From an uncultured Methylomirabilota bacterium (GTDB taxonomy: Bacteria > Methylomirabilota > Methylomirabilia > Methylomirabilales > 2-02-FULL-66-22): a stretch of DNA of 64,000 nucleotides. The first letter of the stretch is position 1. Each line of letters starts with the position of its first letter. Made by a program: the position numbers and the translations under genes. The notes beneath the pieces are model-generated. The model had not been told where the DNA came from, made no database searches, and was given only the letters and a program-made list of their open reading frames with translations. This document shows, in pieces, positions 31,628 through 52,610 of the stretch. The stretch lies in contig CAWJSJ010000001.1 in assembly GCA_963845565.1 (NCBI GenBank), positions 576,001-640,000 on the forward strand, in the 5' to 3' direction.

Positions 31628-31640
31628 AAGGGGGACAAGG

Positions 31641-33563: not shown

Positions 33564-33605
33564 AAATTGAAACCCGTGTGGATCTTTACCTCAGGGAGGG
33601 CGCTC

Positions 33606-33764
33606 ATGGAAAAGTACGAGTGCGGGATGTGCGAATACACCTACGATCCGGCCATCGGGGACCCGGCTCGCGGTATCCCGCCCGGCACGTCCTTCGACGA
33701 TCTGCCGAACGACTGGAAATGCCCGAAATGCAACGCGGGCAAGAACATGTTCACGGAGGCATAG
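33606..33764 (+). CDS. Rubredoxin
   Basis: [12 protein letters not shown]...[20 protein letters not shown]. Confidence 0.95.
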
Positions 33765-33767
33765 ACT

Positions 33768-34949
33768 ATGCAACCGGTCGAGGTCATTCCCGGAATCCAA
33801 TGGGTGGGAGTGCTCGACACCCAGTTGCGGGTGTTCGACGTGATCATGCAGGCGCAGCACGGCACCACCTACAACTCGTACCTGGTGCGGGGTCGGGACA
33901 AGGTGGCGCTGATCGACGCCAGCAAGGGGATGTTTTCCGAGACGTTTCTCGACACATTGCGCCCCGCCATCGACCCCAAAGACATCGACTACATGGTGTG
34001 CAATCATCTGGAGCCGGACCATTCCGGGGCGCTGGGCGACGTCCTCGACGTTGCGCCCAATGCGCAGGTGGTGGTGACCAAGCCCGGGAGAAATCTCGTG
34101 CGGGCCATCCTGAACCGGGATGTCAAGCCCATCGTCGTCGGAGAAGGCGATCGGATCGATCTGGGCGGCCGGACGCTCCGGTTCATCTCGGCGCCGTTTC
34201 TGCACTGGCCGGATACCATGTTCACGTATCTCGAAGAGGACCAGGTGCTGTTCTCGGGCGACTTCCTGGGCGCGCACTACTGCGATCCTCGGCTCTTCAA
34301 CGATCTCATCGTGAACTACGACGAGGCGTTCCAGTACTACTTCCAGGTGATCATGCGGCCGTTCAAGGAGTATGTCCGCGAGGCGCTGGCCAAGATCGAC
34401 ACGCTGCCGATCAAGATCGTCTGTCCGGTCCACGGCCCCATCCTGCGCAGCGACGTCGGCCGCTATCTCGAGAAGTACCGCGTGTGGAGCGCCGAGCCCC
34501 CGCGAGGCAACAAGAAGCGGCTGCTCGTCTTCTACGTGAGCTCGTACGGCAACACCGAGCGAATGGCCCACGCCGTCGCGCGGGGCATTCGGGAGGCGGG
34601 AGCGGATGCGGACGTGCTGGATCTGACCAAGGTGGATTACCGCGCGATGCTCGACGACATCGAGGCGGCCGAGGGGATCGTGGTCGGCACCTGCACGATC
34701 AACGGCGACGCACTGGAGCATGCCTGGAGCCTGCTGAGCTCGATGACCACCATCAAACTCAAAGACAAGCTGGGGGCATCATTCGGGGCCTTCGGCTGGA
34801 GCGGCGAGGGTCCGCTCATGATCGCCGAGCGCATGAAGGGCCTCAGGTTCCGGGTGCCGGAAGAGCCCATGCGGGTGCAACTCGTCCCCAGCGAGGCGGA
34901 CCTGAAGGCGTGTGAGGAATACGGCCAGAGACTCGTCGCCGCCTTGTAG
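33768..34949 (+). CDS. fprA: FprA-family A-type flavoprotein (flavodiiron protein)
   Basis: GTTYNSYLV, NHLEPDHSG, LHWPDTM, GDFLGAH, SYGNT and FGWSGEG. Confidence 0.93.
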   Translation: MQPVEVIPGIQWVGVLDTQLRVFDVIMQAQHGTTYNSYLVRGRDKVALIDASKGMFSETFLDTLRPAIDPKDIDYMVCNHLEPDHSGALGDVLDVAPNAQVVVTKPGRNLVRAILNRDVKPIVVGEGDRIDLGGRTLRFISAPFLHWPDTMFTYLEEDQVLFSGDFLGAHYCDPRLFNDLIVNYDEAFQYYFQVIMRPFKEYVREALAKIDTLPIKIVCPVHGPILRSDVGRYLEKYRVWSAEPPRGNKKRLLVFYVSSYGNTERMAHAVARGIREAGADADVLDLTKVDYRAMLDDIEAAEGIVVGTCTINGDALEHAWSLLSSMTTIKLKDKLGASFGAFGWSGEGPLMIAERMKGLRFRVPEEPMRVQLVPSEADLKACEEYGQRLVAAL

Positions 34950-35267: not shown

Positions 35268-35367
35268 GAAGAGTAGTCCTCCTTTCCCGGCAGGTGACGT
35301 GGGCCCGCGGACGGAGGCGGAGCCGACGGTCCCGTCCGAACGAAACGCAATACGCAGGGGGTGCCGA

Positions 35368-36600
35368 ATGCGAATCGAGTCGTCAACCGTCCAATTCACC
35401 AGCGTGCGTCAGTACCTGGCGCAACAGACGAGGAGCGAGTCCGTTCGGGTTTGGAGCGGCCAGCAGCCTCGTCCAACGGCTGAGCAGGCACCGCCCACGG
35501 AACCTGTCGGTGCCGGGGCCCGCGACCGAGGAGTCGGGCGACCACACGGAGCAGGCGACCCCGAGGGACTGCGTGCGGGAGGCAGGCAGTGGCCGAGGTG
35601 GCGTCATGCGCCGGCGGCGTTTGCGCCGGACCGTGATGCCGGGTCATCCGTAGTGCACGGTTCAACGCCACGGCGGCACGGCCGAGATGATGAGGCGCCT
35701 CACGCGTCCACGCGCGCCGGAGAGGTGTCCCGCGGCGGAACCGAGGCAGTCGCTGCCGGCGAGATCGACGAGGACGCCGGGCTGCCGCCGAAGCTCGGCC
35801 TCGTGAAACTGATTCTGGAGCGGCTGCTTGGGGTCCGGATCAAGATTTCGGAAGCGTCGGACGCGTCGGACGCGTGTCCATGTCCGCGGGCCGAGACACC
35901 CGCCTCCAGCGACGCCCAGAGACCGCGCCGGCAGGGATGGGGGGCGGAGATCACGGTCGCGGAGCGACAGTTCGAGTCCGAGACGACGGCCTTTGCCGCC
36001 GTCGGCGCCGTGAGGACCGCGGACGGCAAGGAGATCTCCTTCAACCTCGCGCTGACCATGCACCGCGAATTCCTGCAGGAGGGGCGTGTGACCCTGCGGG
36101 CCGGCGACGCGGCTCTCGACCCGCTGGTGGTCAACTTCGCGGGTACGGCGGCGCAGCTCTCCGATGTCACGTTCAGCTTCGATCTCGACCGGGACGGGCA
36201 GACCGAGGCGCTCCCCACCTTGGGGTCAGGCAGCGGCTTCCTGGCGGTCGACCTGAATGGCGACGGCAAGATCAACGACGGCGGGGAGCTGTTCGGGCCG
36301 CGGTCCGGCGACGGGTTTGCCGATCTGGCACAATACGACGGCGACGGCAATCGCTGGATCGATGAAGCCGATCCCATCTTTGGGCGGCTCCGCCTCTGGC
36401 AACCGGATGCGGACGGCGCGGGAACGCTGGTGACGCTGAGTCAAAAGCAAGTCGGGGCCATCTACCTCGGCCAGGCGGCGACCCCCTTCGCGGTGAAGAG
36501 CGCGCAGAACGAACTCCTAGGGCAGGTCGTCTCGTCCGGTATCTACCTGGCCGAGACCGGCGGCGTGGGGAGCGTGCAGCAGGTGGACCTGGCGGTGTGA
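35368..36600 (+). CDS. Hypothetical protein with C-terminal Dx[DN]xDG (VCBS/EF-like) Ca-binding motifs
   Basis: VRTADGKEISFNLAL, DPLVVNF, FDLDRDGQTE, DLNGDGKINDGGELFG and DGDGNRWIDEADPIF. Confidence 0.75.
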   Translation: MRIESSTVQFTSVRQYLAQQTRSESVRVWSGQQPRPTAEQAPPTEPVGAGARDRGVGRPHGAGDPEGLRAGGRQWPRWRHAPAAFAPDRDAGSSVVHGSTPRRHGRDDEAPHASTRAGEVSRGGTEAVAAGEIDEDAGLPPKLGLVKLILERLLGVRIKISEASDASDACPCPRAETPASSDAQRPRRQGWGAEITVAERQFESETTAFAAVGAVRTADGKEISFNLALTMHREFLQEGRVTLRAGDAALDPLVVNFAGTAAQLSDVTFSFDLDRDGQTEALPTLGSGSGFLAVDLNGDGKINDGGELFGPRSGDGFADLAQYDGDGNRWIDEADPIFGRLRLWQPDADGAGTLVTLSQKQVGAIYLGQAATPFAVKSAQNELLGQVVSSGIYLAETGGVGSVQQVDLAV

Positions 36601-36678: not shown

Positions 36679-37215
36679 CTACACGCGTTCCAGCTTCTGA
36701 TAGACGACCATCTCCGCTTGGGTGCGCAGGTCTTCCGGGTGGTAGCGGGGGATGGGGGATTCGATCTGCTTGAGCTTGACCGGAGAGACCTTCTTGTCCA
36801 CCAGGCCGACCGCGACGGCGATGCCGTAGAGGATGGCCTCGGGGCGGGGAGGGCAGCCGGGGATATAGAAGTTGACGGGGACCACTTTCTCGACAGGGCC
36901 GAGCACGCTGTAGGTGTCGTACCAGAGCCCGCCGCCGGAGGCGCAGGAGCCGATGGCAAACACGAGTTTCGGCGCCGCCATGGCGTCATACGCGCGGCGC
37001 AGGGCCTTGGCGGTAGCGCGCATGGCAGGCCCCTGGCAGAGCATGACGTCCGCGTGGCGAGGCGAGCCGACCAGACGGATTCCGAACCGCTCGACATCAT
37101 AGTAGGGCGTCAAGACATTCAGCACCTCGATGTCGCACCCGTTACAGCCGCCGCTGTTGGCGTGGTACACCCAGAGCGAACGCGGAAACATCTTGCGACA
37201 CAATGCGGTCAGCAC
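36679..37215 (-). CDS. hycG: Group 4 hydrogenase small subunit (HycG/NuoB-like)
   Basis: GTG after GGGAGG; GGCNGCDIE, SPRHAD, GSCA and IPGCPPRPEA. Confidence 0.85.
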   Translation of the reverse strand: MLTALCRKMFPRSLWVYHANSGGCNGCDIEVLNVLTPYYDVERFGIRLVGSPRHADVMLCQGPAMRATAKALRRAYDAMAAPKLVFAIGSCASGGGLWYDTYSVLGPVEKVVPVNFYIPGCPPRPEAILYGIAVAVGLVDKKVSPVKLKQIESPIPRYHPEDLRTQAEMVVYQKLERV

Positions 37216-37365
37216 GGGCAGCCTCCCTGAGGAAAACGAACAGCGGCCAGGTGGTTCCTCTCCGCAGTTCTCCGAGATGACCCACATGCTCCAGCAACAC
37301 CTCGCCGCGGGACGTCCGTCGATCTGCGAACCCTGTGGGTCATGGGTCTCCGTCGCGCGTGATCG

Positions 37366-37893
37366 TCAATCCAGCTCGATGTCGATGTCGCGCACCGTCG
37401 CTTCTTTGTCCAGATAGGACTTGGCGTCGTACACCCACCGCTCCGTATCCAACTGATCCAGTCGATAGCCCTTCATCATGAGCTGCTCCAGCGGGCCGGG
37501 CTCCTTGAAGCAGCGGCCGCAGCGCTGGCAGGTGCCCATGAACAGCTCCAGCCGCTGCTGCATGTCGCCGATGTCGTTGGTGGCGTTCTCGAACTCGGTG
37601 CTCATGGTGATGGCCTTCTCGGGGCAGACGTCCGCGCAGCGACCGCAGTACGTGCAGCGCCGGCCGATGTACTGGATGATTCGGATCTCTTGGCAGATGT
37701 CGTGGACCAGGATCTCGCGGGCCGGACAGTTGTTGGCGCAGCCTGCGCACCCGATGCACTTGGCGATATTGAAGAGGGGCCGGCCCCGGAAGCCGGGCGC
37801 CGGCGCCGGCGCCGCCTGCTGCGGATACGGCAGGGTCACGCGACCGGCCTGGAGGCAGATGATGGTTTCCTTGAGTTTGCTCACCAGCGACAT
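37366..37893 (-). CDS. hycF: Group 4 hydrogenase 2[4Fe-4S] subunit (HycF/NuoI-like)
   Basis: TLPYP, GFRGRP, CIGCAGCANNCP, CTYCGRCADVCP and CQRCGRCF. Confidence 0.85.
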   Translation of the reverse strand: MSLVSKLKETIICLQAGRVTLPYPQQAAPAPAPGFRGRPLFNIAKCIGCAGCANNCPAREILVHDICQEIRIIQYIGRRCTYCGRCADVCPEKAITMSTEFENATNDIGDMQQRLELFMGTCQRCGRCFKEPGPLEQLMMKGYRLDQLDTERWVYDAKSYLDKEATVRDIDIELD

Positions 37894-37908
37894 GGTCGCC
37901 CCCATTCC

Positions 37909-38841
37909 TCAATATCCGTACAGCGCCAACAGCAAGGCCACCAGGGAGACGCCCAGGAGCACCCCGTAATAGCGAATCGCCTGGTCGATCCGGTAGCGCG
38001 CGTGCGTGGCGGCCACCAGGGTCACCACCAGGACGAGGAACCCCAGTTTCAGGAGGAGCGAGACGAGATTCAGCGGAACCGGCAAGCCGCTGCCCCAGGG
38101 GGCAAAGAGGGAGACCACCAAGGCGCCGTACACCACCAGCTTGGCCATCTGCGTGAACTTGAAGAGGGCCAACTTCGGTCCGGAGTATTCCATCAGGGAG
38201 CCTTCCATCAATTCCGTTTCGGCCTCGGCGATGTCGAAGGGAAGGCGCCCGACCAGGGCCTGGAACGCCAGAATCGCCACGCCCAGCATCAGGAGCCCCG
38301 CCAGGGGCCATGCGGCGTGGGCGTAGGCCGACCCGGCGAGGACGACGTCCAAGCGCAGCGACCGGGCGTGCACCACGCCGATGACGACGGCCACGGCCAG
38401 CAGGGGTTCCAGCGTCATGAGCGACATCATCTCGCGGCTCATGCCGACCAGCGAATAGGTGGAGCCCGCCGCGAGGCCCGCCAGCATCGTCGAGACGCCG
38501 CAGACCGTGAGGAGATAGATGAGGAGATAGGCGTCGGCGGCTCCGGACAACGGGGGGGTCGTCCCCATGGGCACCAGCAGGGCCACGGTCAGGATGGCGG
38601 CCAGCGAGAGCCAGGACGCGAATCGTTGCATCGCCGGGCTTTCGCCGGACTCGAGGTCCTCTTTGCCGAGCAGCTTGAGGAGATCGTAGTACGGCTGCCA
38701 GATCGGCGGCCCCTGGCGGGACTGGACCCGGGCGGTCACCTTCCGCAGGATCCCCTCGCAGAGCGGGGCGAGCGCCAAGACCAGCGCGAGGTTCATGCCG
38801 CCGGAAAACACGCGGACCGCCAGACTTGTCTCCATCGCCAC
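37909..38841 (-). CDS. hycD: Group 4 hydrogenase membrane subunit (HycD/HyfC/NuoH-like)
   Basis: RKVTARVQSRQGPPIWQPYYDLLKLLGK and RLPFDIAEAETELMEGSLMEYSG. Confidence 0.88.
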   Translation of the reverse strand: MAMETSLAVRVFSGGMNLALVLALAPLCEGILRKVTARVQSRQGPPIWQPYYDLLKLLGKEDLESGESPAMQRFASWLSLAAILTVALLVPMGTTPPLSGAADAYLLIYLLTVCGVSTMLAGLAAGSTYSLVGMSREMMSLMTLEPLLAVAVVIGVVHARSLRLDVVLAGSAYAHAAWPLAGLLMLGVAILAFQALVGRLPFDIAEAETELMEGSLMEYSGPKLALFKFTQMAKLVVYGALVVSLFAPWGSGLPVPLNLVSLLLKLGFLVLVVTLVAATHARYRIDQAIRYYGVLLGVSLVALLLALYGY

Positions 38842-38847
38842 GTTTCC

Positions 38848-38950
38848 TTAGGAGCCGTTACGAAATAGCTTGTCCATTTGTCGTAATTTCGTTACGGCTC
38901 CTTATGCCGTTTCCGGAAAATCTCCCGTCAATCCATTCCTGCACAACGGC
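38848..38950 (-). repeat. Family C element (about 100 bp), copy 2, between hycE and hycD
   Basis: Hairpin GGAGCCGTTACGAAAT...ATTTCGTTACGGCTCC; homologous to 31370-31469. Confidence 0.8.
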
Positions 38951-40633
38951 TCAGGGTGTGCGAGTCACGCCCCGCGCGAGTCGCAGGAGATCCTCTTGCG
39001 TGTAGAGGCGGTGCGCGCCGGAGCGCAGGTCCACACTCTCCATCCGGTCCGTGCAGGAAAAGCACGGATCGATGCTGCCCAGCGAGATCGTCATGTCGGC
39101 GATCTGCTGGTCCTTGATCATGGCGGGGACGCCCTGCAGGTTCTGGTAGGTGGGGGCGCGCACCCGCCAGCGCCGCGGCCGGTTGTTCTCGCCGGTGATC
39201 ACGAAGTGGTGCGCCTCGCCGCGCGGGGCCTCGACCGACGAGAGGCCGACCCGACCGACGGGCAACTCATCCTGGATGGATGCCTGCAGCGGCCCCTCCG
39301 GAAGGTGATCCAGGCACTGTCGGATGATCTTGATGGACTCGAAGACTTCCAGGGTCCGGACCAGGACCCGGGCCCACACGTCGCCGCCTTGCTGGGTGAT
39401 GACGTTGAACTCCACGTCGCCGTAGGCCGCATACGGATGGTCGCGCCGGGCGTCGATGTCCACGCCGGCGGCCCGGGCCACCGGGCCGATCAGCCCAGCC
39501 TCCTTCACGAGCGTCGCGTCCGCGACCCCCACGCCACGCGTCCGCTTCTGGATGTTTCGGTCTCCTGCCACGGCGTCCGCCACGGCGCGCCATTCCGTTT
39601 CCAGTGTGGCCAGGACCCCGCTGAGTTCACTCCGCAACGCCGGGGTGATGTTCCAGCGGACGCCGCCGATGACGCACAGGGCGTAGGTCTTCCGGTTGCC
39701 GCTGATCTTCTCGGCGATCCACATGATGGGCTCGCGGATCCGGAAGGACTGCATGAAGAGCGTGTCGAAGCCCAGGATATGGCAGGCGAGGCCGACCCAG
39801 AGGAGATGGCTGTGGAGTCGCTCGATCTCCAGCATGATGGTCCGGATGCCGCGGGCGCGCGGAGGAACCGTCAGGGCGGCCGCTTGTTCCACGGCTTGCG
39901 CGTACGCCACGTTGTGCACGCACCCGCAGATGCCGCAGATCCGCTCCGCGGCCATCGGGATCTCGTTATAGGTGAGGACTGAGTCCCCGAGCTTCTCGAT
40001 GGCTCGATGGACCATGAAGCCGCGGTATTCGCAGCCGCGCACCACCTCGCCATCGACGTAGAGGCGGAAGTGGGTCGGCTCATCCAGGGTCGGGTGGAAG
40101 GGGCCGAAGGGCACCACCACGCAGCGGTCGGGAGGGTCGTCGAAGTCGAAGGTCCGGTTCTCGTCGTAGTCGGGCGGGACGGCGTCCCAGGGATAATCGC
40201 GGCGCAGCGGATGAATGCCGTCAGGCCAGCCGTCCGGCAAGATCAGGCGCTTGGGGTAGGGGTGGCCCACCGGCTCGATCCCCACCAGGTCGCGGAACTC
40301 GCGCTCGGACCAGTTGGCGGCCGGCACGACGTCGGAGATGCTGTCCACGCGCGGCGAACTGCCGGCCAGGTAGGTCATGACACTGCAGAGCACCTGCTCC
40401 CTGTCGAAGGCGAAGTCGTGCGCCACCAGGAACTTGCCGGAGACGGGGCGATCGTCCAGGCCGATGCCGACGACGTACCGCGCGTTCAAGTCGCGGAAGA
40501 TATACCGGCACATCTCCCGAAGGGCCTGCGGCTCTACGTACAGGAACAGCCGGCCGTCCTCCGGCACGTCCGTCCGCTGGATGACCGGCGTGAAGCGCTC
40601 CGTGATCCGTTTCAACACGACGTGTGCCGACAT
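38951..40633 (-). CDS. hycE: Group 4 [NiFe]-hydrogenase large subunit (HycE-like, NuoC-D fusion)
   Basis: ANWSEREFRDLVG, GPFHPTLDEP, L1 RICGICG, EAPRGE, L2 DPCFSCTDR plus a 30-aa extension. All four Ni-ligand Cys are present. Confidence 0.92.
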   Translation of the reverse strand: MSAHVVLKRITERFTPVIQRTDVPEDGRLFLYVEPQALREMCRYIFRDLNARYVVGIGLDDRPVSGKFLVAHDFAFDREQVLCSVMTYLAGSSPRVDSISDVVPAANWSEREFRDLVGIEPVGHPYPKRLILPDGWPDGIHPLRRDYPWDAVPPDYDENRTFDFDDPPDRCVVVPFGPFHPTLDEPTHFRLYVDGEVVRGCEYRGFMVHRAIEKLGDSVLTYNEIPMAAERICGICGCVHNVAYAQAVEQAAALTVPPRARGIRTIMLEIERLHSHLLWVGLACHILGFDTLFMQSFRIREPIMWIAEKISGNRKTYALCVIGGVRWNITPALRSELSGVLATLETEWRAVADAVAGDRNIQKRTRGVGVADATLVKEAGLIGPVARAAGVDIDARRDHPYAAYGDVEFNVITQQGGDVWARVLVRTLEVFESIKIIRQCLDHLPEGPLQASIQDELPVGRVGLSSVEAPRGEAHHFVITGENNRPRRWRVRAPTYQNLQGVPAMIKDQQIADMTISLGSIDPCFSCTDRMESVDLRSGAHRLYTQEDLLRLARGVTRTP

Positions 40634-40635
40634 GG

Positions 40636-42609
40636 TTAGGCCCCGAGGTGCGAGGAATTCGTGTCCGCTCTCTGGGGGAGCGCGTCCGCGGGTCGCGTGG
40701 CCCCATTGTCAGCGGTTCCTGTCGGCGTCCTGCCGACCCATGGGAGATAGCGGGTGATCTCGCGGTACAGGTTGCGCGCGCCGTAGCGCATCTGATCCGA
40801 CTCGACCACGTAGCCGCAGAGCCACGGCTCGGCGGTCCGCCGCAGGGCTCCGCCCAGGAGGGAGATCCCTGCGGCGAGGCAGAGCAGGGCGCCGAAGACC
40901 AGGGCAACCACCAGCGGCGACAGGATCGCCAATCCGGCCGGCCCCTCCACGCCGGTAAGGCCGGCGGCTGGGAGCGGCGGGAGCTTGGCCAGGGTCGCGC
41001 CGAGCCCCTGTGGACTGCCCAGCAGGGCGCGGTGGATGAGCTGGTAGCCGAGGTGCGGGGCGAGGCCAAGAATCACGCACAAAGCGGCCAAGAGGATCTG
41101 GGGTGCCAACATGGGCCAGCCGGTTTCCGCAATCTGGCCGGACGCCGCCCGTTCGGCAACGTGACGGCTCACGCGGGAGAGGAAGCTCGTGCCGAAGAAC
41201 TTGAGGAAGAGCGCCAGGGTCAGGACGCTGGTCAGCATGGCCAGGACCGCGAACACGGCGAGATAGGGGGCGTGCGCACTCCCCAGGATCGTGGTGATGA
41301 AGATGCTCCATTTGCTGGCAAAGCCGTTGAACAGTGGCACGCCTGCGATGGAGAACGTCCCGATCAGCGCCGTGACCGCCGTGGCCGGAAGGTATTTGAT
41401 CAGGCCGCCCATCCGGTTCAGGTCCTGCGTCCCGGTGGCGTAGAGGAGCGACCCGGCGTTCAGGAAGAGCAGGCTCTTGAACAGCCCGTGGTTCAGCATG
41501 TGGAAGACGGATGCGGAGAAACCGATGGTGGCCAGGAAGAGCACCGCGTCGTCGGTTCGCCCGGGCTTGATCAGCGCGAGACAGGCGCCCAGGGGGAGGA
41601 GAATATAGCCCACCTGGCCGATGCTGCTGAAGGCGAGGAGCCGCTTCGACTCGTCCTGCCCCAGGGCCTGCGTGGTGCCGATGAAGAGGGTGGCCGTCGC
41701 CAGGGCCGCGATGACGAGACCCCAGACCTCGCTGGGGTACGCGTCCGCCGCCTCGGCCGGCACGAGCCAGAGGAAGGAGCGCATGAGGCCGTAAATACCC
41801 GTCTTGATCATGACGCCGGACAACAGGGCGCTCACCGGGGACGGGGCGGCGGGGTGGGCGGCGGGCAGCCACCATTGCCCAAAGGGCCACACGCCGGCCT
41901 TGATGCCGAACCCGATCAGGAAGCACACCATGCCCGCGGCGGCCTGGCCGGCCCCCGTCCGGAGGAGATCCGGCATCCCGTGGCTGATGGCGTCGAAGTC
42001 GTAACGCATCAGCGTTTCGCCCGCCAGGGTGACCGATCCCTGTGCCAAGATGCCCGCGCCGAGGAGGATGAAGGCGCAGGCAACTTCCATGGCGATGAGA
42101 TACCGGTTGGCCGCGCGGACGTTCGCGCGGTGCTTGTAGTCGAAACGGACCAGGAAGTAGGAGGAGACCGTCATGAGTTGCCAGAGCAGGAAGAACCCGG
42201 CCATCAGGTCGGTCACGATCACGATTCCATACATGCCGGCGACGAAGAGCAGGAAGTAGGGATAGTACCGGTACAGGCCGTAGTCCGGGTAGTGCTCCAT
42301 GTACTGGATGGAATAGAGGGCCGACAGCGCCGAGATCACGGCGATGAGCAGCAGGAACAGGGCGCTCAGGCCGTCCACGTAAATCCGGAGGGCGGACGCG
42401 TATTGCGGCAACGTCCAGACGGTGACCGCCTGTCCCGGTCCCGAGGCCAAGACGCTCACGGCCGCGCCGATGGCCAGGAAGCTGGACAACGCTGTGACGC
42501 CGCAGGCCACCTGGCCGGCCAACACCCGGTTCCGGGATACCGGGATGACCAGCACGGCGCCGCCCAGCAACACGACAAAGGCGGCCATCATGACGGTTGC
42601 AGCAGTCAT
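40636..42609 (-). CDS. Antiporter-like membrane subunit (HycC/HyfB/NuoL-like)
   Basis: GFGIKAGVWPFGQWWLPAAHPAAPSPVSALLSGVMIK, KRLLAFSSIGQVG, NHGLFKSLLF and PLFNGFASKW. Confidence 0.9.
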   Translation of the reverse strand: MTAATVMMAAFVVLLGGAVLVIPVSRNRVLAGQVACGVTALSSFLAIGAAVSVLASGPGQAVTVWTLPQYASALRIYVDGLSALFLLLIAVISALSALYSIQYMEHYPDYGLYRYYPYFLLFVAGMYGIVIVTDLMAGFFLLWQLMTVSSYFLVRFDYKHRANVRAANRYLIAMEVACAFILLGAGILAQGSVTLAGETLMRYDFDAISHGMPDLLRTGAGQAAAGMVCFLIGFGIKAGVWPFGQWWLPAAHPAAPSPVSALLSGVMIKTGIYGLMRSFLWLVPAEAADAYPSEVWGLVIAALATATLFIGTTQALGQDESKRLLAFSSIGQVGYILLPLGACLALIKPGRTDDAVLFLATIGFSASVFHMLNHGLFKSLLFLNAGSLLYATGTQDLNRMGGLIKYLPATAVTALIGTFSIAGVPLFNGFASKWSIFITTILGSAHAPYLAVFAVLAMLTSVLTLALFLKFFGTSFLSRVSRHVAERAASGQIAETGWPMLAPQILLAALCVILGLAPHLGYQLIHRALLGSPQGLGATLAKLPPLPAAGLTGVEGPAGLAILSPLVVALVFGALLCLAAGISLLGGALRRTAEPWLCGYVVESDQMRYGARNLYREITRYLPWVGRTPTGTADNGATRPADALPQRADTNSSHLGA

Positions 42610-43124
42610 GGTCGCTCCCCACAGACCGCCGGGGGTTGGGTTCCGGCCGGCAGGACCTCGGCCAAGAGGTCGCGCAAGACATCGAGCGTCGTTTGCACCG
42701 GCTCCGACAGGCCGGGGGCCTGGTCCACGGATTGAGGTTGGACGCCGAGGAGGACGACACGCGTCGCGCCGTCCGTCTCGATCTCGATCAGTCGAGCCAG
42801 CGTTCCCAGCGACAGCTTGTGGGTGGAGAGCTGCGGGTAGCGCCCCACGATCTCGCAGGCATCCCACAGCGCGACGTCCCCGGGCGCCGCGCCCATCTCC
42901 ACGGTATCCAGGAAGAGGATGGTCTGGAAGTCTCCTCGACGCAGTGGTGGCACGAAACGCTCCGGCGTCCGCTCGGCCACGATCACGTCGGAGACGCCGA
43001 GGGCATGCACGGCTTCCGCCAGCCGCACCCCGAACCCGTCGTCGCCACGGTCGGGGTTTCCGATACCCACCAGACAGGTCCGACCCGTAAGCCGTTGGCG
43101 CAATGCGTTCCGGAGGTCGGCCAT
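42606..43124 (-). CDS. hycI: Hydrogenase maturation protease (HycI-like)
   Basis: VGIGNPDRGDDGFG, TPE, STHKL and LGVQP. Confidence 0.85.
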   Translation of the reverse strand: MADLRNALRQRLTGRTCLVGIGNPDRGDDGFGVRLAEAVHALGVSDVIVAERTPERFVPPLRRGDFQTILFLDTVEMGAAPGDVALWDACEIVGRYPQLSTHKLSLGTLARLIEIETDGATRVVLLGVQPQSVDQAPGLSEPVQTTLDVLRDLLAEVLPAGTQPPAVCGERP

Positions 43125-43972
43125 CAGATATCCTCTCCGAGCCGCTTGATCTGCTCGTACGTGAAGACCGGGCCATCGGCGCAGACGTAGGCCAAGCCGA
43201 TGCAGCAGTGACCGCACTTGCCCACGCCGCACTTCATGTACCGCTCCAGCGTGGACATGATGTTTCGGTCCTGGAACCCCATCAACTTGAGGTCCCGGAT
43301 CACGAACCGGAACATGATGGGGGGACCGCACACGAAGGCCGTGGTGTCCTCGACGGGGACCGTGACGCCGGGCTTGCGGAACAGGCTGCCCACAACGCCG
43401 ACGTGGCCGGTCCACTGGTCGTCGCCCCGATCCACGGTGAGATAGCACTCGAAGCCCCGGGTCATCTCCCACTCGCGGAGCGCCCCCAGATACATGAGAT
43501 CCTTCAGACCGCGCGCCCCATAGAAGAGCTGGATCTTGCCGTAGCGGTGCCGATTGTCCAGGGCGTAGTTGAGACAGGAGCGGAGGGGGATCAACCCGAT
43601 GCCGCCGGCCACGAACAGGAGGTTCCGGCCGAAGTACTGGGTCATCGGGAATCCGTTTCCATACGGGCCTCGCACCGCGAATTTGTCCCCAGGCTGCAAC
43701 TGGTGGAGGGCGGCGGTGACGCTCCCCACCCGGCGGACGGTGAAGAACAATTCGTCCTCGGTGGGGCTCGGCGGAAGCGAGGCCGGGAATTCGCCCGCGC
43801 CAAAGACCGACACCTGGGCGAATTGGCCGGGGAGGAACTTGCGAAAGGCCGTCTGCTCGGCCGGGTCCTCAAAATGCCAGTAAAACGTCTTGACGTCCGC
43901 GATCTCCTCCACCACGCGGTCCATGATCGCGATCTTGGGGAGATAGACGTTCTCAGGTTGCGGCTGGCTCAT
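43124..43972 (-). CDS. FAD/NAD(P)-binding [2Fe-2S] protein (AsrB/HydG/FlxA-like)
   Basis: PGQF, RGPYGNGF, AGGIGLIPLRS, CGPPIM and MKCGVGKCGHC...CADGPVF. Confidence 0.9.
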   Translation of the reverse strand: MSQPQPENVYLPKIAIMDRVVEEIADVKTFYWHFEDPAEQTAFRKFLPGQFAQVSVFGAGEFPASLPPSPTEDELFFTVRRVGSVTAALHQLQPGDKFAVRGPYGNGFPMTQYFGRNLLFVAGGIGLIPLRSCLNYALDNRHRYGKIQLFYGARGLKDLMYLGALREWEMTRGFECYLTVDRGDDQWTGHVGVVGSLFRKPGVTVPVEDTTAFVCGPPIMFRFVIRDLKLMGFQDRNIMSTLERYMKCGVGKCGHCCIGLAYVCADGPVFTYEQIKRLGEDI

Positions 43973-45035
43973 GTCGCTCGCTCTCCGCCGTGGTGCGGCG
44001 CACGATCTCCACCACGTTGGGCATGCCGATGTCCCCGTGACAGACCTCGACGCAGCGCCCGCAGCCCACGCAGGCCACCGACAGTTCCCGCTGGATGAAG
44101 TAGTGGGCCAGCTTCCGGAAAAACCGCCGATTGCGGCGGTCGTGGGCGGCCTTCCGGGGGTTGAAGCCCCCGGCCATGCGGGTGAAGCCGCCCAAGGCGC
44201 AGGCGTCCCAGAGGCGCACGCGCTCGTAATCGGCGGGCCCGACCTGGCGTTCCGTCACGGTGAAGCAGGTGCAGGTCGGACACATATAGCTACAGCCGCC
44301 GCATTCCAGACACCGGTTGCCGATCTGCTCCCAGGTCGCGTCGCTGACCTGCTCGGAGGTGATGTAGTGCACGGTGGACCAGTACCAGCTCGTCGCCAGT
44401 CGGAAGCGCTTGCGCACGTCATTCAGGATCTGCCGTCGGCGGGCCAGGTGGGTCGGCGTGCCCTTGCGGAACATGGGGTGGGCGAAGAGGGCTTCGCCTT
44501 TGTCGGTGCCGGCGACCACCAGGAATTCGTCCCCCAGGTCCATGAGCTGCAGGTCGAAGTGTTCGCGGGCGGCTGGACCGGTGTCGGCGCACATACAGAA
44601 ACAGTCGTTGTCGATGTCGAGGTCCGGGTCGGTGCAGACCACGTTCACCAGGAACAGGTTGCGGCGGTGCTGCTCGTAGTAGGTGTCCTTGAAATCGCGG
44701 CCCAGATAGAAGCGATCGAGGTGATAGATGCCCGCGGTGTCGCAGGAACGGATGCCGAAGATGGCGCGGGGCGGGGCCTCGCAGGTCGCGTGAATGCGCG
44801 GGTGCGTGTTGAGGTGAATCTGGAGGAGCCGCTCGATGTGCGGGAGGACATATCGCTTGGGCGGATAGTACGGGTTGGGAATATGTACCTGGACCAGATG
44901 CCGGTTGGCGTCGGTGACGGAATCGAAGCAGGTGTCGCGTCCCCGGCCGTAGAAGGGGGCGATGACCTCGTATTCTTCGCGCAGGAGGTCCACCAGCGAG
45001 AGCAGGTTGGCCTTGTCCATGATTCGTGCCCGCAT
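43953..45035 (-). CDS. 4Fe-4S dicluster protein (AsrA/HydB/FlxB-like)
   Basis: FGIRSCD, CFC, CLECGGCSYMCPTCTCF, RLWDAC and CVGCGRCVEVC. Confidence 0.9.
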   Translation of the reverse strand: MRARIMDKANLLSLVDLLREEYEVIAPFYGRGRDTCFDSVTDANRHLVQVHIPNPYYPPKRYVLPHIERLLQIHLNTHPRIHATCEAPPRAIFGIRSCDTAGIYHLDRFYLGRDFKDTYYEQHRRNLFLVNVVCTDPDLDIDNDCFCMCADTGPAAREHFDLQLMDLGDEFLVVAGTDKGEALFAHPMFRKGTPTHLARRRQILNDVRKRFRLATSWYWSTVHYITSEQVSDATWEQIGNRCLECGGCSYMCPTCTCFTVTERQVGPADYERVRLWDACALGGFTRMAGGFNPRKAAHDRRNRRFFRKLAHYFIQRELSVACVGCGRCVEVCHGDIGMPNVVEIVRRTTAESERHEPAAT

Positions 45036-45037
45036 CG

Positions 45038-47068
45038 TCAGACCCTTTCCAGCCGGACGCAGACGGGGAGACGTCCGCCGCGCGACGAGGCGGCCGCGTC
45101 ACCCAGGAGCTGCCCCCGGACCTCGCGGAGAAAATACGGGACGAAGATCATGCCCGACTTCACCTCGCGGGTGACACGGGCCCAGGTGGTGGCGACGCCG
45201 GTCACGCCGACCAAGCGGACCTTGGCGCCGTCCCGAATCTCCAGCCGCTTGGCGTCGTCGGCGTTGACGTCCACGAAGCCCTCGGGGTAGTCGAGGAGGA
45301 GAATCTGATACTCGCGCTTCAATGTTTCGCTGTGCTGGACCAGCACGTTCTGATGCCAATAGTACAGGGAGTGGCCGAAACTGAGCGTGAAGGGGTAGTC
45401 GTCGGACGCGCAGGGGGGCTGGCTGGGCCGCGGGATGGGGACCAGGCTGAAGGGCTGCCCGACGATCCCCTCCTCGAAGAGGAAGCGGGTCCCCAGCGGT
45501 TTGTCCGTGCCGCACGGCCACTGGCGGCCGTAATCCCGGGCCAGATTGTCGTAGGTCGCGGCCCCATAGAAGGGGACGGCCCGTCCGATCTCTCGCATGA
45601 CGTCGGCGGCGGCGGCGTACTCCCATCCGGCCCCCAGGCTGTTCGCCATGCGGACGATCTGCCGCCAGGCGGGCGCGAGGCCGGAGGGCGGGTCTACGGC
45701 CTTGCCGACGAGCTGGATCCGACGCTCGGTATTCGTGAAGGTGACCTGCTCTTCCCCAAAGGCCGCCACCGGTAGGACGACGTGGGCGTACTTGGCGGTC
45801 TCGGTGAGGAACGGGTGCTGGACGATGACCAGGTCGAGTTGCCGAAGGACGGCCGACGCGTCGGCAGAGGCCGCCATGACCGGGTCGTGTCGGCAGAGCC
45901 ACAGGGCACGCACGGCGCCTTTCCCGTGTCGCCCGAGCAGTTGCTCCGCCCCCTGGCCGGGCTTGATGGGAAGGGGCGCCCCCCAGAGCACCTCGAAGGA
46001 ACGGCGTCCGGCATCGTCCGCCACCGGCACGTAGCCGGGCAGTCGGTTGGGCAGCATCCCCATGTCGCAGACGCCCTGGAGATTGTTGTGCTCGGTCAGC
46101 GCGAAGACGCCCGCCCCCGCCTTCCCGATATTACCGGTGAGCAGGGCCAGATTGACCAAGGCCTGAATCGCCTCGGCGCCGCTGGCTTCCACACCGGTCG
46201 AGAAGAGGATGGCGGCGGCGCGGGCACGACCGTAGGTGACGGCGGCCTCCTCGATCAGTTCCGGCGGGATGCCGCAGGCGTCGGCCGCCCACAGGACGTC
46301 GTAGGCGTGGACCGCCTCCAGGAACGGCTCGACATTCCTGCAGTGGGCCTTGAGGAAGCGTGCGTCGAACAGCCCCCGATCCACAATGACCTTCGCCAAG
46401 GCCCCGTACAGGGCCGCGTCGCTGCCCGGACGCACCTGGAGAAAGACGTCGGCATGTTCCGCCAGCCGATGTCGCCGCGGGTCGATGACGATGAGCTTCC
46501 GACCCTTCAGCTTGGCGCGCATGACGCGGCCGCCGATGGTCGGGAGCTGCAACCCCAGGTCCACGCCGTTCACGATGATGGCGTCGCTCGTGTCGAGCTC
46601 GGCGACGGAGTTGGTGCTCGCTGGGACACCCAGCATGGCCAGCAACACGTCGATGCTGTTGTTGCGATACACTCCGAGCCCATGGTCCACGTTGTTGGTA
46701 CCGATGATGGCGCGGGCGAATTTCTGGAGAAGGTAGCTTTCTTCGTTGGAGCCGCGCGGGGAATTGATGAAGCCCACGGCGTTGGGTCCGGCCTGCGCCT
46801 GGACCTGCCGCAGGCGATCGGCCGTATAACCGAGGGCCTCTTCCCAGGTGGCTTCCTGCAACGCGCCGTGCTTGCGGAGCAGCGGGGTGAGGAGACGATC
46901 GGGGGCGCTGGCGACCTCGTTGACGTGCCAGCCTCGCACGCAGATCCGGCCTTGGTTGGTGGGATGGGTCATGCTGGGGTAGGCGCCGGTGAGGCGAGAC
47001 CCAGCGCTCTCCAGGTAGATCCCACAGCCCACACCACAGAACGTGCAGGTGGTCAGCGTGTGGGGCAT
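45038..47068 (-). CDS. FdhF-like molybdopterin-oxidoreductase-fold protein with a degenerate active site
   Basis: CTFCGVGC...C 4Fe-4S motif and the FdhF scaffold (NEESYLLQKFAR, NNLQGVCDMG, FTNTERRIQ) are retained. The active-site loop reads NNVDHGLGVYRNNS, with no Cys/Sec-His. Confidence 0.85.
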   Translation of the reverse strand: MPHTLTTCTFCGVGCGIYLESAGSRLTGAYPSMTHPTNQGRICVRGWHVNEVASAPDRLLTPLLRKHGALQEATWEEALGYTADRLRQVQAQAGPNAVGFINSPRGSNEESYLLQKFARAIIGTNNVDHGLGVYRNNSIDVLLAMLGVPASTNSVAELDTSDAIIVNGVDLGLQLPTIGGRVMRAKLKGRKLIVIDPRRHRLAEHADVFLQVRPGSDAALYGALAKVIVDRGLFDARFLKAHCRNVEPFLEAVHAYDVLWAADACGIPPELIEEAAVTYGRARAAAILFSTGVEASGAEAIQALVNLALLTGNIGKAGAGVFALTEHNNLQGVCDMGMLPNRLPGYVPVADDAGRRSFEVLWGAPLPIKPGQGAEQLLGRHGKGAVRALWLCRHDPVMAASADASAVLRQLDLVIVQHPFLTETAKYAHVVLPVAAFGEEQVTFTNTERRIQLVGKAVDPPSGLAPAWRQIVRMANSLGAGWEYAAAADVMREIGRAVPFYGAATYDNLARDYGRQWPCGTDKPLGTRFLFEEGIVGQPFSLVPIPRPSQPPCASDDYPFTLSFGHSLYYWHQNVLVQHSETLKREYQILLLDYPEGFVDVNADDAKRLEIRDGAKVRLVGVTGVATTWARVTREVKSGMIFVPYFLREVRGQLLGDAAASSRGGRLPVCVRLERV

Positions 47069-47149: not shown

Positions 47150-47641
47150 TCACGGGGCGGTGACTCCTTCGCAACGCGCCGGCGCAACCGCCACGGGCGG
47201 CAGGTCGATCAGGGGCGCCACGAGCATCAGGGCATCGGCGATGCCGCCTTTGGTGAGCGGAGAGATCGGCGCGCCGAACCCGAAATCTGCGGCAGGAATG
47301 GTGATCCACCAGGCATCCGGCGCGCGGCCGAATGCGGTCACCGCCAGGCGGAGCACGCGGTCCGGTTCGACGGTGTGGGCCGGACCGGTGTCGTCGGCCG
47401 TCGGGTGGAGACGGCGGACCCGCACCGCGGGATCCTCGGCAGCGGGATGGGCGTCCAGGAAGATGGCGCGCTCCGCCGCGGAGAGCGGGGCGGCCAGTTC
47501 GGGGGTGAGTTGATGGAGGGTGAACACGCGGACGGCGGGGTGGCCCCAGGCGGCGACGCGGCCCGCGGCGACGCGGCCCGCGGCGTCATCGCCGCGCAGG
47601 TCGTTCCCGTAGCCGATCACCAGGATCGAGTCGGAACGCAT
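47150..47641 (-). CDS. hoxW: Hydrogenase maturation protease HoxW
   Basis: VIGYGNDLRGDDAAG, HQLTPELA and FLDA; directly follows hoxH. Confidence 0.88.
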   Translation of the reverse strand: MRSDSILVIGYGNDLRGDDAAGRVAAGRVAAWGHPAVRVFTLHQLTPELAAPLSAAERAIFLDAHPAAEDPAVRVRRLHPTADDTGPAHTVEPDRVLRLAVTAFGRAPDAWWITIPAADFGFGAPISPLTKGGIADALMLVAPLIDLPPVAVAPARCEGVTAP

Positions 47642-47666
47642 CTCCCCCTCCGCCCGGCGAAGTCCC

Positions 47667-49091
47667 TCAGGTGCGCCAGGCTTCGTCGAGGACCACACCG
47701 TCGGATCCCACCAGGGTCACCTGGAGCGGCATAGTGCCGGCGGCATGGGTCGAACAGCTCAGGCAAGGGTCGTAGGCGCGGATCCCCGCCTCGACCCGGT
47801 TCAGCATGCCTTCCGGAATGTGGGGTCCGCGCACGTAGTGACGAGCGATCTGGGCCACGGTCCGATTCATGGCCAGATTGTTCTGGCCGGTGGCGATGAT
47901 CAGGTTCACCTTCTGGATCAGCCCGTATTCGTCGACCCGATAATGGTGGAAGAGGGTGCCGCGCGGCGCCTCGCTCACCCCGACCGCTTCCAGCTGGTTG
48001 ATCCCGGCGTCGGCACGCAGCCGGTCGGACATCAGGTCGGGATCGTCCAGGGCGCGCTCGATCTTCTCGACGGCTGCCAGGATCTCGATCAGTCGCGCGT
48101 GGTGATAGCGGAACGAGGAGGTCACCGTGCCGTTCCCGCGATCGCGAAACTCGCGGAGTTCCTGGTCCGCCAGGGGGGTGCCGATGTGCGAGCAGACGTT
48201 CAGCCGCGCCAGCGGTCCGACGCGGTAGATTCCGTCGGGGTAACCCAGCGGCCGATAGAAGGGCGACTTCAAGTAGGAGTGCGATTCCACCGCCTCGCCG
48301 ATGAACTCCTGGTACCGCCGGGCCTCCAGCCGGTCCGCGATGACATTGCCGGCGCTGTCCACGAAGCGGAGGTGGCCGTCGTAATGCTCCCATGCGCCGT
48401 CATGGCCGACCAGGCCCATGAAGAGGCTGGGGAAGTTGCCGAAGATGTGGGCCTCTTTCTCGAAGGAGGGGAGCATTCGTTTGAAGCGGCCCAGCGTCTC
48501 GAGGATGGTGGCGCGCGCCTCCGGGATGCGGGTACGGATCTGGCCGTGCGACTCCTGCGAGAGCGCCGAGCGGACACCGCCCGGCACGGCCCAGGCGGGG
48601 TGGATCTTCTGCCCGCCGAGGTGCGCGATGATCTCCTGTCCGAATTGGCGCAGGCGGATGCCGGAGCGCGCCAACTCGGGCTCGGCGGCGACCAGGCCGA
48701 AAATGTTCCGGGTGGCCGGGTCGCTATCGAATCCCAAGATGAAGTCAGGTGCGCTGAGGTGAAAGAAGCTCAGGGCATGGGACTGCAGGATCTGGCCCAG
48801 ATTCATCAGACGCCGCAGCTTCTCCGCGGCGGGGGGGACGCTCACCGCGAGAATCGCGTCGCCCGCTTTGGCGGAAGCCAGGAGGTGGCTGACCGGGCAG
48901 ATCCCACAGACACGGGCGGTGATCCCGGGCATTTCGTAGAGCGGGCGGCCTTCGCAGAACCGCTCGAAGCCGCGGAACTCGGTGACGTGGAATTTGGCAT
49001 CGACCACCTGTCCGGTGTCGTCGAGATAGATGGTGATCTTGGCATGGCCTTCGATGCGGGTGACGGGATCGATGACAATCCGCTGAGTCAT
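47667..49091 (-). CDS. hoxH: Bidirectional NAD-linked [NiFe]-hydrogenase large subunit (group 3d)
   Basis: [23 protein letters not shown] and [12 protein letters not shown]. Confidence 0.95.
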
Positions 49092-49156
49092 GGACGAATT
49101 CGTCTCCGTGTGTGCGTGAGTCCTCGGCACCTGGTCTCGCTGCGTGCGGGCGGTGC

Positions 49157-49699
49157 CTACCCCGCTTTCAGGTCCCGACCGGTCAGGACGGGTACCTTGC
49201 CTGCCAGAAGTTGCTCCAAGACGGCCCTGATGCGGTCCGCCGGCGGCGGGCAGCCGGGCAGGAAGGTCTCCACCGGCACGACCTCGTGCACCGGCTGGAC
49301 CCGATCCAGGAGGACCGGCACGATCCCCGGATCGGCGGGGATCTGGGCGGCGATGTCTGCCCCCTCCAGATAGGCACGGGTGAGCACGTGCTCCGCGGAG
49401 CCAAGCGGGTTCCGCATGGCCGTGACGTTGCCGGTGACCGCGCAATCGCCGAACGAGACCAGATGCGTCGTGTGCCGTCGGATCCGACGGATCAGGTGCA
49501 AGTGCTCGTCGTTGGCCACGGCACCTTCGATGAGGGCTACGTCCACCCCTTCGGGGTACTCCTTGACATCGGCGATCGGGCTATACACCAACCGGACGTG
49601 GCCGGCGAGAGTGATGAGCCATTCGTCCAGGTCGAGGAACGACATATGGCAACCCGAGCAGCCGCCCAGCCAGACGGTGGCCAGCCTTATCGGATCCAT
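49157..49699 (-). CDS. hoxY: Bidirectional hydrogenase small subunit
   Basis: [30 protein letters not shown] and PGCPP. Confidence 0.95.
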
Positions 49700-50403
49700 T
49701 GTTTCTTCTCCCGTGCGGTGACGATGAATTCCAGGCGCCAGCGGTCCCGCTCCATCTCGGACACGGTGACGCCGCGGCGGAAGATGGCACCGGTCGGGCA
49801 GGCGTGCACACATTTGCCGCAGGCGGTACAGCTCTTGGCCTGGCCCCAGGGCTGGTTGAGATCGGTGATGACGAGGGTATGCGCGCCGCGGCCCGCCATG
49901 TCCCAGGTGTGCGCGCCCTCGATCTCGTCGCAGACGCGCACGCAACGGGCGCACAGGACGCACCGATTGTGGTCGACCCCGTACCGCTCGTGGGTGACGT
50001 CCACGGTGTGCGGCGGGAACATGTAGTCGAAGCGGACGTGATCCATCCCCACGGCGATGGCCAGGTCCTGCAGTTCGCAATGGCCGTTGGCGACACAGAC
50101 GGCGCACACGTGGTTTCGCTCCGCGAAGAGCAGCTCCATGATCATCCGGCGGTAGTCCCGGATCCGATCCGTGTTGGTGCGGATCTCCATGCCCTCGGCC
50201 ACCGTGGTGACGCAGGCGGGCACCAGCCGGTTGCTGGCGCCGACCTCAACCAGACAGACCCGGCAGGCGCCGACGGGGGTCACGCCTTCCAGGCGGCAGA
50301 GGGCGGGGATGAAGATCCCAGCCTCGTGGGCGGCCTCGAGGACCGTCTGGTCCTCGTGGGCGCTGACGAGCTGTCCATCGATGGTGAGTGTCTTTACGGC
50401 CAT
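49687..50403 (-). CDS. hoxU: Bidirectional hydrogenase FeS subunit
   Basis: [38 protein letters not shown] and [15 protein letters not shown]. Confidence 0.95.
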
Positions 50404-50434
50404 GATCGCCGACCTCGCGCGCGAGTGAACGTGA

Positions 50435-52061
<1,627 letters not shown>

Positions 52062-52084
<23 letters not shown>

Positions 52085-52610
52085 TCTCGAGCCATCCTTT
52101 CACGTGCGTCACGACACTGTCGGGCGTCTGGTTACCCACCACGACGCCGTCGAGGACGACGGCGGGGGCAATGCCGCAGGCGCCGATGCAGCGCGCCTGG
52201 ATGAGCGACATGCTTCCGTCCGACCGGGTTTCCCCGGAGCGGACCTTTGCGTAGTCTTCGACGGTCTTGACCAGCGTGGCCGCGCCTTTCACGTAGCAGG
52301 CCGTTCCCATGCAGACCACACAGGTGTGTCGACCCTTCGGCTTCAGGGAAAAGAAGTGATAAAAGGTGGCGACGCCATAGACGCGGCTGGGGGGGAGCTT
52401 CAGACCCTGCGCGATATACACCAAGAGTTCGGGGTCGAGATACCCGTAAAGTTCCTGTGCCGTGTGGAGGACCTCGATGAGTGCATCGGCTTGGTATTGG
52501 TGGCGTTTCATTGCGGCAGCCAGCATTTTTTGCCGGTTGTCGGCCGCCAGCCCTTTGGTCGGAATTCGGCCGTTTCCCTGTGTCTTCGCCGTGGCAGTGG
52601 CGGACGCCAT
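52062..52610 (-). CDS. hoxE: Bidirectional hydrogenase subunit HoxE (NuoE-like)
   Basis: [27 protein letters not shown] and [10 protein letters not shown]. Confidence 0.93.

Follow-up and report, generated by a model that had tools for sequence, protein, structure and literature searches.

The closest described relatives of the enzyme treated here are the group 4b [NiFe] hydrogenase clusters that Takano et al. (2026; PMC13582414) recognized in silico, in which a formate dehydrogenase (Fdh)-like protein without the catalytic Cys/Sec accompanies homologues of the beta and gamma subunits of soluble hydrogenase I (SHI), and for which bifurcation was proposed (papers given with a PMC or bioRxiv identifier are cited throughout from the accessible parts of their text). 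'Enigmatic' group 4 hydrogenases of Saganbacteria RX5A/RX6A, encoded beside an unclassifiable molybdopterin-fold protein, AsrA/AsrB and CooF, had been reported by Matheus Carnevali et al. (2019; PMC6349859). We analysed a nine-gene cassette on the minus strand (47068 to 36679) of a 64,000-nucleotide stretch from an uncultured Methylomirabilota bacterium (GenBank assembly GCA_963845565.1, contig CAWJSJ010000001.1, positions 576,001 to 640,000; hereafter the window), in which a predicted inactive relative of the formate dehydrogenase FdhF, here termed FdhX, and an AsrA/AsrB-type module accompany a group 4 membrane hydrogenase. A preliminary description of this DNA could not confirm that the arrangement was undescribed; the design has already been published in silico for related lineages (PMC13582414, PMC6349859), and the cassette is a reduced variant of an enzyme type known in silico. 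We give about an even chance to the reading that it encodes a membrane-anchored, reversible NADH:H+ oxidoreductase without net pumping, with FdhX off the electron path.

The cassette shares with the Takano-type clusters a dead Fdh, an AsrA/AsrB-type module, HycI and a fused HycE, including the pairing of a Cys/Sec-less Fdh with SHI-beta/gamma homologues. In the HycE tree the lineage with the Ni motifs listed by Takano et al. is the sister group of the window's clade. A typical Takano-type cluster has HyfE, several antiporters and several ferredoxins, whereas the window's clade has one antiporter, with Gln in transmembrane helix 5 (TM5), no HyfD, HyfE or HyfF, and one ferredoxin-like subunit. 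Takano et al. propose NADPH and an unknown third substrate, whereas the evidence here leans towards NADH and no molybdenum chemistry. Verrucomicrobiota are not listed in their table, whose rows, where seen, carry other, sister-type L1 motifs; the reduced clade may be absent from their analysis. Saganbacteria RX5A/RX6A likewise combine a group 4 hydrogenase, a molybdopterin-fold protein and AsrAB, read as an oxidoreductase module, but they keep a CooF/HycB-like gene and Mrp subunits, and the catalytic loss is not worked out in the accessible text (PMC6349859).

Escherichia coli formate hydrogenlyase 1 (FHL-1; FdhF-HycBCDEFG; PDB 7Z0S/7Z0T) resembles the cassette in its HycC/D/E/F/G core, its two-subunit arm, a broken TM5/TM7 Glu-Lys pair and an equivalent of HycF Arg122, but here HycB is missing, the FdhF relative is apparently dead and AsrAB is added; the pair is broken at Lys in FHL-1 and at Glu in the window's clade, the single-metal site of HycF is replaced by CxxCxRC, and HycE belongs to a separate clade (support 1.0). 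SHI beta/gamma of Pyrococcus furiosus (group 3b; PDB 9NEZ) are the best solved homologues of AsrA and AsrB, but SHI is soluble and NADPH-linked, with Thr at the position of AsrB D181 and no equivalent of AsrA C149. The C-terminal domain of complex I NuoG, which holds the off-path cluster N7, is also a molybdopterin fold without the chemistry and with one retained [4Fe-4S] cluster, and N7 superposes with cluster A1 of FdhF (PMC9474812); FdhX, in contrast, is a separate FdhF-derived protein, paired with AsrAB and not with NuoEF. We found no biochemical study of this cassette type in the literature, most subscription papers lying outside the search, and the accessible parts of PMC9723716 and bioRxiv 2025.08.29.672306 do not describe it. 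As far as the literature searched goes, the TM5 Gln, carriers without detected molybdenum cofactor (Moco) genes, the NADH marker, the AsrA/HycF cysteine pair and the route of origin are apparently added here.

The nine genes form a conserved unit

All nine genes of the preliminary description were found, in the order it gave: the open reading frames (ORFs) of the FdhF-fold protein FdhX, an AsrA-like and an AsrB-like protein, HycI, one antiporter-like subunit, HycE, HycD, HycF and HycG follow one another at spacings of -20 to +150 nt (Table 1), and their nearest named relatives belong to Methylomirabilota. Likely starts were set at 43124 (hycI), 42609 (antiporter) and 37215 (hycG), one of them corrected and two further ones fixed; the hycG end at 36679 was confirmed, and the start of its 202-aa ORF lies too far upstream, which leaves 178 aa.

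A genome scan with FdhX gave at least 80 loci, and among the matches listed 32 had 54-86% and 48 had 35-38% identity. The 32 former loci, 7 from close relatives (one duplicate dropped) and 80 metagenome loci found via AsrA make up a set of 119, which are not independent, since each was chosen by one gene, many are close kin and one (L099) has an AsrA identical to the window's. Gene order is kept in all of them as far as each extends, with three exceptions that are each accounted for: the antiporter of L031 is missing in place and present on another contig, hycDFG lie about 7 kb downstream in L018, and in L015 a fragment of hycG stands inverted at the end of a contig. All nine genes are present in 47 of the 119, the largest gap between matches within the cassette is at most 542 nt, and four loci carry two antiporter paralogues where the others have one gene. 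Named carriers belong to at least five phyla (Methylomirabilota, Verrucomicrobiota, Acidobacteriota, Nitrospirota and Armatimonadota). The synteny of the input genes with the hyc genes, proposed earlier as a check, is conserved; the shared order is not due to chance. The absence of a HycB-type linker, also reported before, extends to the whole set (no HycB/HyfA match at E<=1e-8 in 119 loci); HyfE was found in none of the 119, and HyfD, HyfE and HyfF are all absent from the clade.

An intact hoxEFUYHW operon, overlooked in the preliminary description, lies on the same strand 81 nt upstream of fdhX. Hox genes are adjacent to the cassette in 14/18 loci with FdhX at least 68% identical versus 0/54 more distant ones; because they adjoin it only in close relatives, the conserved unit is the nine genes, and HoxEFU was rejected as the general diaphorase of the cassette. 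Two apparent FdhX-AsrA fusions (P0001, P0002) were discarded as frameshift-ridden artefacts. In four Verrucomicrobiota (L004, L007, L009, L024) the cassette is immediately preceded by genes for a histidine kinase, a response regulator, HdrC and HdrB, and besides this block no conserved flanking genes were found.

Near-identical short contigs over fdhX, hycE and the hox genes occur in three sediment metatranscriptomes of one study, at low depth and without a silent control, and none of the RNA pieces shown spans the hoxW-fdhX junction; transcription and co-transcription are thus not demonstrated. A scan for promoters and terminators gave no signal above shuffled sequences.

FdhX has the fold of FdhF and has lost its catalytic residues

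The predicted structure of FdhX (predicted local distance difference test score 87.8) superposes on E. coli FdhF with template modelling scores of 0.87-0.91, and formate dehydrogenases in a fold search are 31-38% identical to it. The N-terminal [4Fe-4S] cysteines are retained (C8, C11, C15 and C43), and Tyr134, Arg135 and Thr325 occupy the positions of FdhF Sec140, His141 and Arg333. The loss of catalytic residues noted in the preliminary description holds across the family: in an alignment with 46 intact FdhF homologues, Cys/Sec140, His141 and Arg333 are absent from 194/194 FdhX sequences, position 140 being Tyr in 179, Phe in 9, His in 5 and Ser in 1. Lys44 of FdhF is Arg in all 191 FdhX sequences that cover it, and the columns of Met297, Arg581, His585, Gln655 and Lys674/679 are altered as well; we take these columns, with Lys44, to line the FdhF cofactor pocket, most residues of which are lost. 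Altogether 84 of the 158 columns conserved among the intact homologues are lost; the four cluster cysteines are kept, and 40 positions have become invariant in FdhX. A Cys following the lost ligand position was rejected as a substitute Mo ligand, being present in only 103/194, and a salt bridge between FdhF Glu621 and HycF Arg122 proved uninformative, since the Glu621 position is Arg in 184/194 and is unconserved in intact FdhF.

Moco genes point the same way: moaC, moeA and moaA went undetected together in 10 of the 32 carrier genomes, and hypD was found in 31 of the 32, including 9 of these 10; the window's genome has moaA. No intact FdhF-like gene was found in that genome by tblastn, the best other matches being 25-28% identical. 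Judged by its residues FdhX is catalytically dead, and it is probably Mo-free. Because the catalytic residues are lost in every FdhX and Moco genes are undetected in 10/32 carriers, formate is not the donor, and the cassette is not a formate hydrogenlyase. The FdhX family comprises 918 clusters at E<=1e-150, not every one of which was checked, and many members bear names such as 'formate dehydrogenase'.

In a Nitrospiraceae locus (L066:3423-9974) another dead Fdh, unrelated to FdhX and without the Cys, His and Arg, carries a fused HoxU-like domain, and hoxE/hoxF-like genes come after it.

An AsrAB module predicted to feed HycF directly

SHI gamma and beta of P. furiosus are the closest solved structures to AsrB (E 3e-58) and AsrA (E 6e-36). 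The earlier proposal that an NAD(P)H-type module replaces the formate input is supported. D181 of AsrB, conserved in 99/99 sequences, aligns without gaps to the Asp of YTVDK in rat cytochrome b5 reductase, which by residue numbering should be D239, the residue whose replacement (D239T) shifts that enzyme to NADPH (PMC5817062); the NADPH-using SHI-gamma has Thr at this position. This one residue favours NADH as the cofactor of AsrB.

E. coli HycF holds a single metal with CxxC...CPxC (PMC9474812). In the cassette's HycF the second Cys pair is lost and CxxCxRC is found (52/52 clade loci and 17/17 sister loci), while 3/3 related loci without an AsrAB module show the E. coli-type motif; the Arg122 equivalent is retained. 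C67 of HycF was set aside as a general fourth ligand, as it is absent in the 17 sister loci. AsrA has an additional cysteine, C149, in 100/100 clade members, 16/16 sister proteins and 2/2 further hydrogenase-linked proteins that were among 60 homologues fetched with a free AsrA, versus none of the other 58, of 4 more free homologues and of SHI-beta. The gain of C149 in AsrA and the three-cysteine motif of HycF suggest direct docking between these two proteins, the dead FdhX lying off the path: AsrA would stand in for HycB, perhaps sharing a cluster with HycF, and FdhX would sit on a side branch. The dead FdhF relative had been proposed as a scaffold or a wire; the scaffold role stands, the wire is less likely than an off-path scaffold, and AsrA is the better candidate for the contact with HycF.

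The hydrogenase core belongs to its own clade

Aligned with E. coli HycE (PDB 7z0s_E), the large subunit shows RICGIC (C233, C236), DPCFSC (C524, C527) and then TDR530 with a 30-residue tail. C233/C236 are present in 61/61 sequences and C524/C527/R530 in 58/61, the remaining three being truncated, and NuoB-, NuoI-, NuoH- and antiporter-like subunits and HycI are encoded in the operon, in agreement with the earlier assignment to a true group 4 [NiFe] core with four Ni ligands and a cleavable tail. In a FastTree phylogeny of 145 sequences HycE forms its own clade (support 1.0), sister to 4b-type sequences and outside the HycE/HyfG clade. The sister lineage carries Ni motifs listed as 4b by Takano et al. 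(PMC13582414), a group they call paraphyletic; HydDB group 4b is formate/CO-respiring and Mrp-linked, with an Mrp or multi-antiporter module and an active Fdh or CODH, and the cassette departs from these features in its single antiporter gene (two in 4 loci), the lack of HyfE and the dead Fdh. The accessible HydDB description divides group 4 into nine subgroups and defines none of them as NAD(P)H-linked (PMC5037454).

Two sister loci (L186 and L190) have two in-frame stops at the N-terminal Ni cysteines of hycE, matching the UXXU type of Takano et al. (PMC13582414). Nitrospirota group 4b-like clusters without an input module were also seen (L182-L184), with no hycG match in the fetched 20 kb. 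The window's genome has two more group 4-like clusters (C1:531000-535300 and C2:303000-310800) and a complete complex I (C2, ~650-663 kb).

A proposed route of origin

Among 20 sister loci, 16 have a degenerate Fdh (509-669 aa) with AsrAB; of the other four, one is truncated and three lack a nearby module. HyfD, HyfB and HyfE are present in 15 of these 16, as is HyfF where the region reaches. With this Hyf-type arm and its intact TM5 Glu residues in the sister lineage, the ancestor probably pumped. Intact FdhF-AsrA-AsrB modules without a hydrogenase in the fetched regions were found in Nitrospirota and a Thermoplasmata genome, with catalytic motifs in 5/6 regions and a frameshift in the sixth. 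In the AsrA tree the hydrogenase-linked proteins cluster (0.85) next to the Nitrospirota FdhF-linked ones (0.82), both at modest support, and the Thermoplasmata protein lies elsewhere. The free triplets (L211-L225, L234, L265-L270) may themselves encode an NAD(P)-dependent formate dehydrogenase whose diaphorase is not of the NuoEF type.

The membrane arm and ion coupling

The TM5 Glu of the antiporter (E. coli HycC E135) is Gln in 59/59 clade sequences and in a deeper nine-gene relative, L271, and Glu in 42/42 sister-lineage antiporter matches and in five antiporter-like genes of other complexes in the window's genome; the preliminary description had overlooked this change to Gln. A separately reduced, minimal sister locus (L187) kept the Glu, so that the Gln is not a forced by-product of arm reduction. 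In complex I the corresponding residue, NuoM E144, is indispensable (PMC5061711). FHL-1 breaks the Glu/Lys pair at Lys, which is Leu208 there (PMC9474812), tolerates E135A (PMC5061711) and has been described as unable to pump (PMC13277316). Loss of HycD E189 was dropped as a sign of uncoupling, the sister loci also lacking E189 and E189A being active in E. coli.

The preliminary description had proposed ion coupling and hence gradient-assisted reduction of NAD(P)+ by H2: the same complex would translocate ions, the gradient driving NAD(P)+ reduction by low H2. This proposal draws on the TM7 Lys of the antiporter (K237 in 56/59), on its TM8 Lys, TM11 His and TM12 Lys/Glu positions (K269, H370, H374, K378 and K433 in 59/59) and on HycD E143/E206/E208 (53/53), all conserved, and on the sister's intact Hyf-type arm, and it would explain why Hox sits beside the cassette; the two-subunit FHL-1-type arm without HyfD, E and F, the Gln in 59/59 and in L271, and the Glu kept by L187 stand against it. 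Ion coupling is, on these residues, doubtful, and we consider this reading unlikely while leaving it an appreciable share.

NADH to H2 yields -4.7 kJ/mol at 10 Pa and -10.4 kJ/mol at 1 Pa (standard potentials, 1:1 pool), less than the 14-17 kJ/mol needed per H+; because this yield is too small, a coupled enzyme could only run from H2 to NAD(P)+ or with ferredoxin, and an uncoupled one would be a redox valve.

A working model and its rivals

In the reading we favour, electrons would pass from NADH to the flavin adenine dinucleotide (FAD) and [2Fe-2S] cluster of AsrB, on to the Fe-S clusters of AsrA, from there to a third HycF site, made up of three of its cysteines and perhaps AsrA C149, and then through HycF and HycG to the NiFe centre in HycE. 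FdhX would be a relic without molybdenum that came, together with AsrAB, from an FdhF-AsrAB module and has been retained as a scaffold beside the electron path. The membrane arm of two subunits, its TM5 Glu/TM7 Lys pair broken, would serve as anchor and feed of substrate protons, probably without net pumping, like that of E. coli FHL-1. The enzyme could dispose of NADH as H2 at H2 below tens of Pa and run in reverse above. More tentatively, since we give it clearly less than an even chance, the hydrogenase would receive electrons straight from NADH via the AsrAB diaphorase, which would reach HycF via an inter-subunit Fe-S cluster of three HycF cysteines and AsrA C149, and the clade would have passed independently through a transition from an FHL-2-like to an FHL-1-like state, its arm trimmed and its Glu/Lys pair disrupted at the opposite residue; a coupled and an uncoupled NADH:H+ oxidoreductase of the complex I superfamily would then exist as a natural pair.

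Several observations weigh against the uncoupled NADH enzyme with an off-path FdhX. Between phyla FdhX retains 54-64% identity, a higher value than a mere scaffold would evidently require; the 10 of 32 carriers without detected Moco genes come from a survey of metagenome-assembled genomes whose completeness is not stated, and moa genes can be linked. A single Asp is a weak predictor of cofactor, the b5 reductase of Physarum having Asn at the D181 position, and the correlated residue changes share one origin, so their counts cannot be taken as separate tests. Conservation of the remaining central-axis residues in the antiporter, and of the HycD glutamates, is in keeping with a functional channel; in Ech an arm of two subunits suffices for pumping; and a soluble NAD-linked Hox beside the cassette in 14/18 close relatives would be redundant with an uncoupled NADH enzyme.

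A three-way bifurcating or confurcating enzyme, as proposed by Takano et al. (2026), would join H2 and NAD(P)H to a third partner, with the FdhX cluster as entry for ferredoxin or another substrate. In the AlphaFold3 model that they published for a sister-type complex, the wire splits towards HycE, SHI-gamma and the Fdh-like protein (PMC13582414), and the retained cluster cysteines and 40 newly invariant positions of FdhX, as well as hdrBC directly upstream in 4 loci, are in keeping with it. The carriers without detected Moco genes and the sister relics of down to 509-532 aa argue against a catalytic FdhX. AsrB is a PyrK/FNR-type single-FAD protein, a family that to our knowledge does not bifurcate by itself. 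We regard such an enzyme as rather improbable.

The hydrogenase and the input module might also be co-regulated and separate, a ferredoxin-driven Ech-like enzyme beside a soluble FdhX-AsrAB NAD(P)H:ferredoxin module, given that intact FdhF-AsrAB modules exist without a hydrogenase nearby and that FdhF binds FHL only loosely; the strict linkage in 119 loci and 16/20 sister loci, and the matching AsrA and HycF cysteine changes restricted to linked forms, leave this little probability. An ordinary formate hydrogenlyase using FdhX or another formate dehydrogenase in trans, to which the FdhF fold, database names such as 'formate dehydrogenase major subunit' and the position of HycE near groups 4a/4b might point, is very improbable in view of the catalytic residues absent from 194/194, the lack of HycB in 119 loci and the lack of an intact FdhF-like gene in our search of the window's genome.

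Features of the cassette and its surroundings

Table 1. Coordinates in the window of the cassette genes and the adjacent hox operon
Feature	Position	Strand	Evidence
FdhX, FdhF-fold, 676 aa	45038..47068	-	sequence and predicted structure
AsrA/HydB (SHI-beta)-like Fe-S protein, 360 aa; 16 near-invariant Cys including extra C149	43953..45035	-	
AsrB/HydG (SHI-gamma)-like FAD/NAD(P)/[2Fe-2S] protein, 282 aa; D181 at nucleotide-specificity position	43124..43972	-	
HycI-like maturation protease, 172 aa	42606..43124	-	
HyfB/HycC/MbhH-like antiporter subunit, 657 aa; TM5 Gln144 replaces Glu; K237, K269, H370, H374, K378, K433 retained	40636..42609	-	
HycE-like [NiFe] large subunit (NuoC+D fusion), 560 aa; four Ni ligands and cleavable tail	38951..40633	-	
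HycD/NuoH-like membrane anchor; E143, E204, E206, E208 retained (E. coli HycD E138, E199, E201, E203)	37909..38835	-	
HycF/NuoI-like 2x[4Fe-4S] protein, 175 aa; extra CxxCxRC (C122, C125, C128), without C-terminal CPxC	37366..37893	-	
HycG/NuoB-like small subunit, 178 aa; four cluster Cys retained	36679..37215	-	
hoxE, F, U, Y, H, W (group 3d bidirectional hydrogenase)	47150..52610	-	HoxU and HoxE above NCBIfam cut-offs

The window is a hydrogenase island, in which Hox and the group 4 cassette are joined by a third, Hdr-linked group 3c system on the minus strand (17554-25951; hypB, hdrC, hdrB, hdrA, mvhD, mvhG, mvhA and a protease). Its mvhA (18048-19512) is split into two overlapping frames near 19070-19130, by a sequencing error or as a pseudogene, and a Tex-family ORF runs in frame into hypA (25953-28736, 927 aa), for which a lost stop or assembly error is likelier than a true fusion. 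Just downstream of the cassette the plus strand encodes a rubredoxin and a flavodiiron protein (33591-34949), possibly for oxygen protection, and an ORF of up to 433 aa (35299-36600), convergent with hycG and without a Pfam or NCBIfam match. A short intergenic repeat lies between hycE and hycD (38845-38945) and at 31430-31640; it is the high-depth spot in the RNA runs and has about 200 BLAST matches on contig C1 alone, the best copies at 80-89% identity.

Implications

If the complex assembles, it would represent a second, independent nicotinamide module on the complex I core. Given the formate dehydrogenase names borne by FdhX members, formate metabolism may be misassigned in many uncultured bacteria. 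The sister lineage, with its full arm and Glu, and the window's clade, with its minimal arm and Gln, provide a direct way to test which features let a complex I-like enzyme pump.

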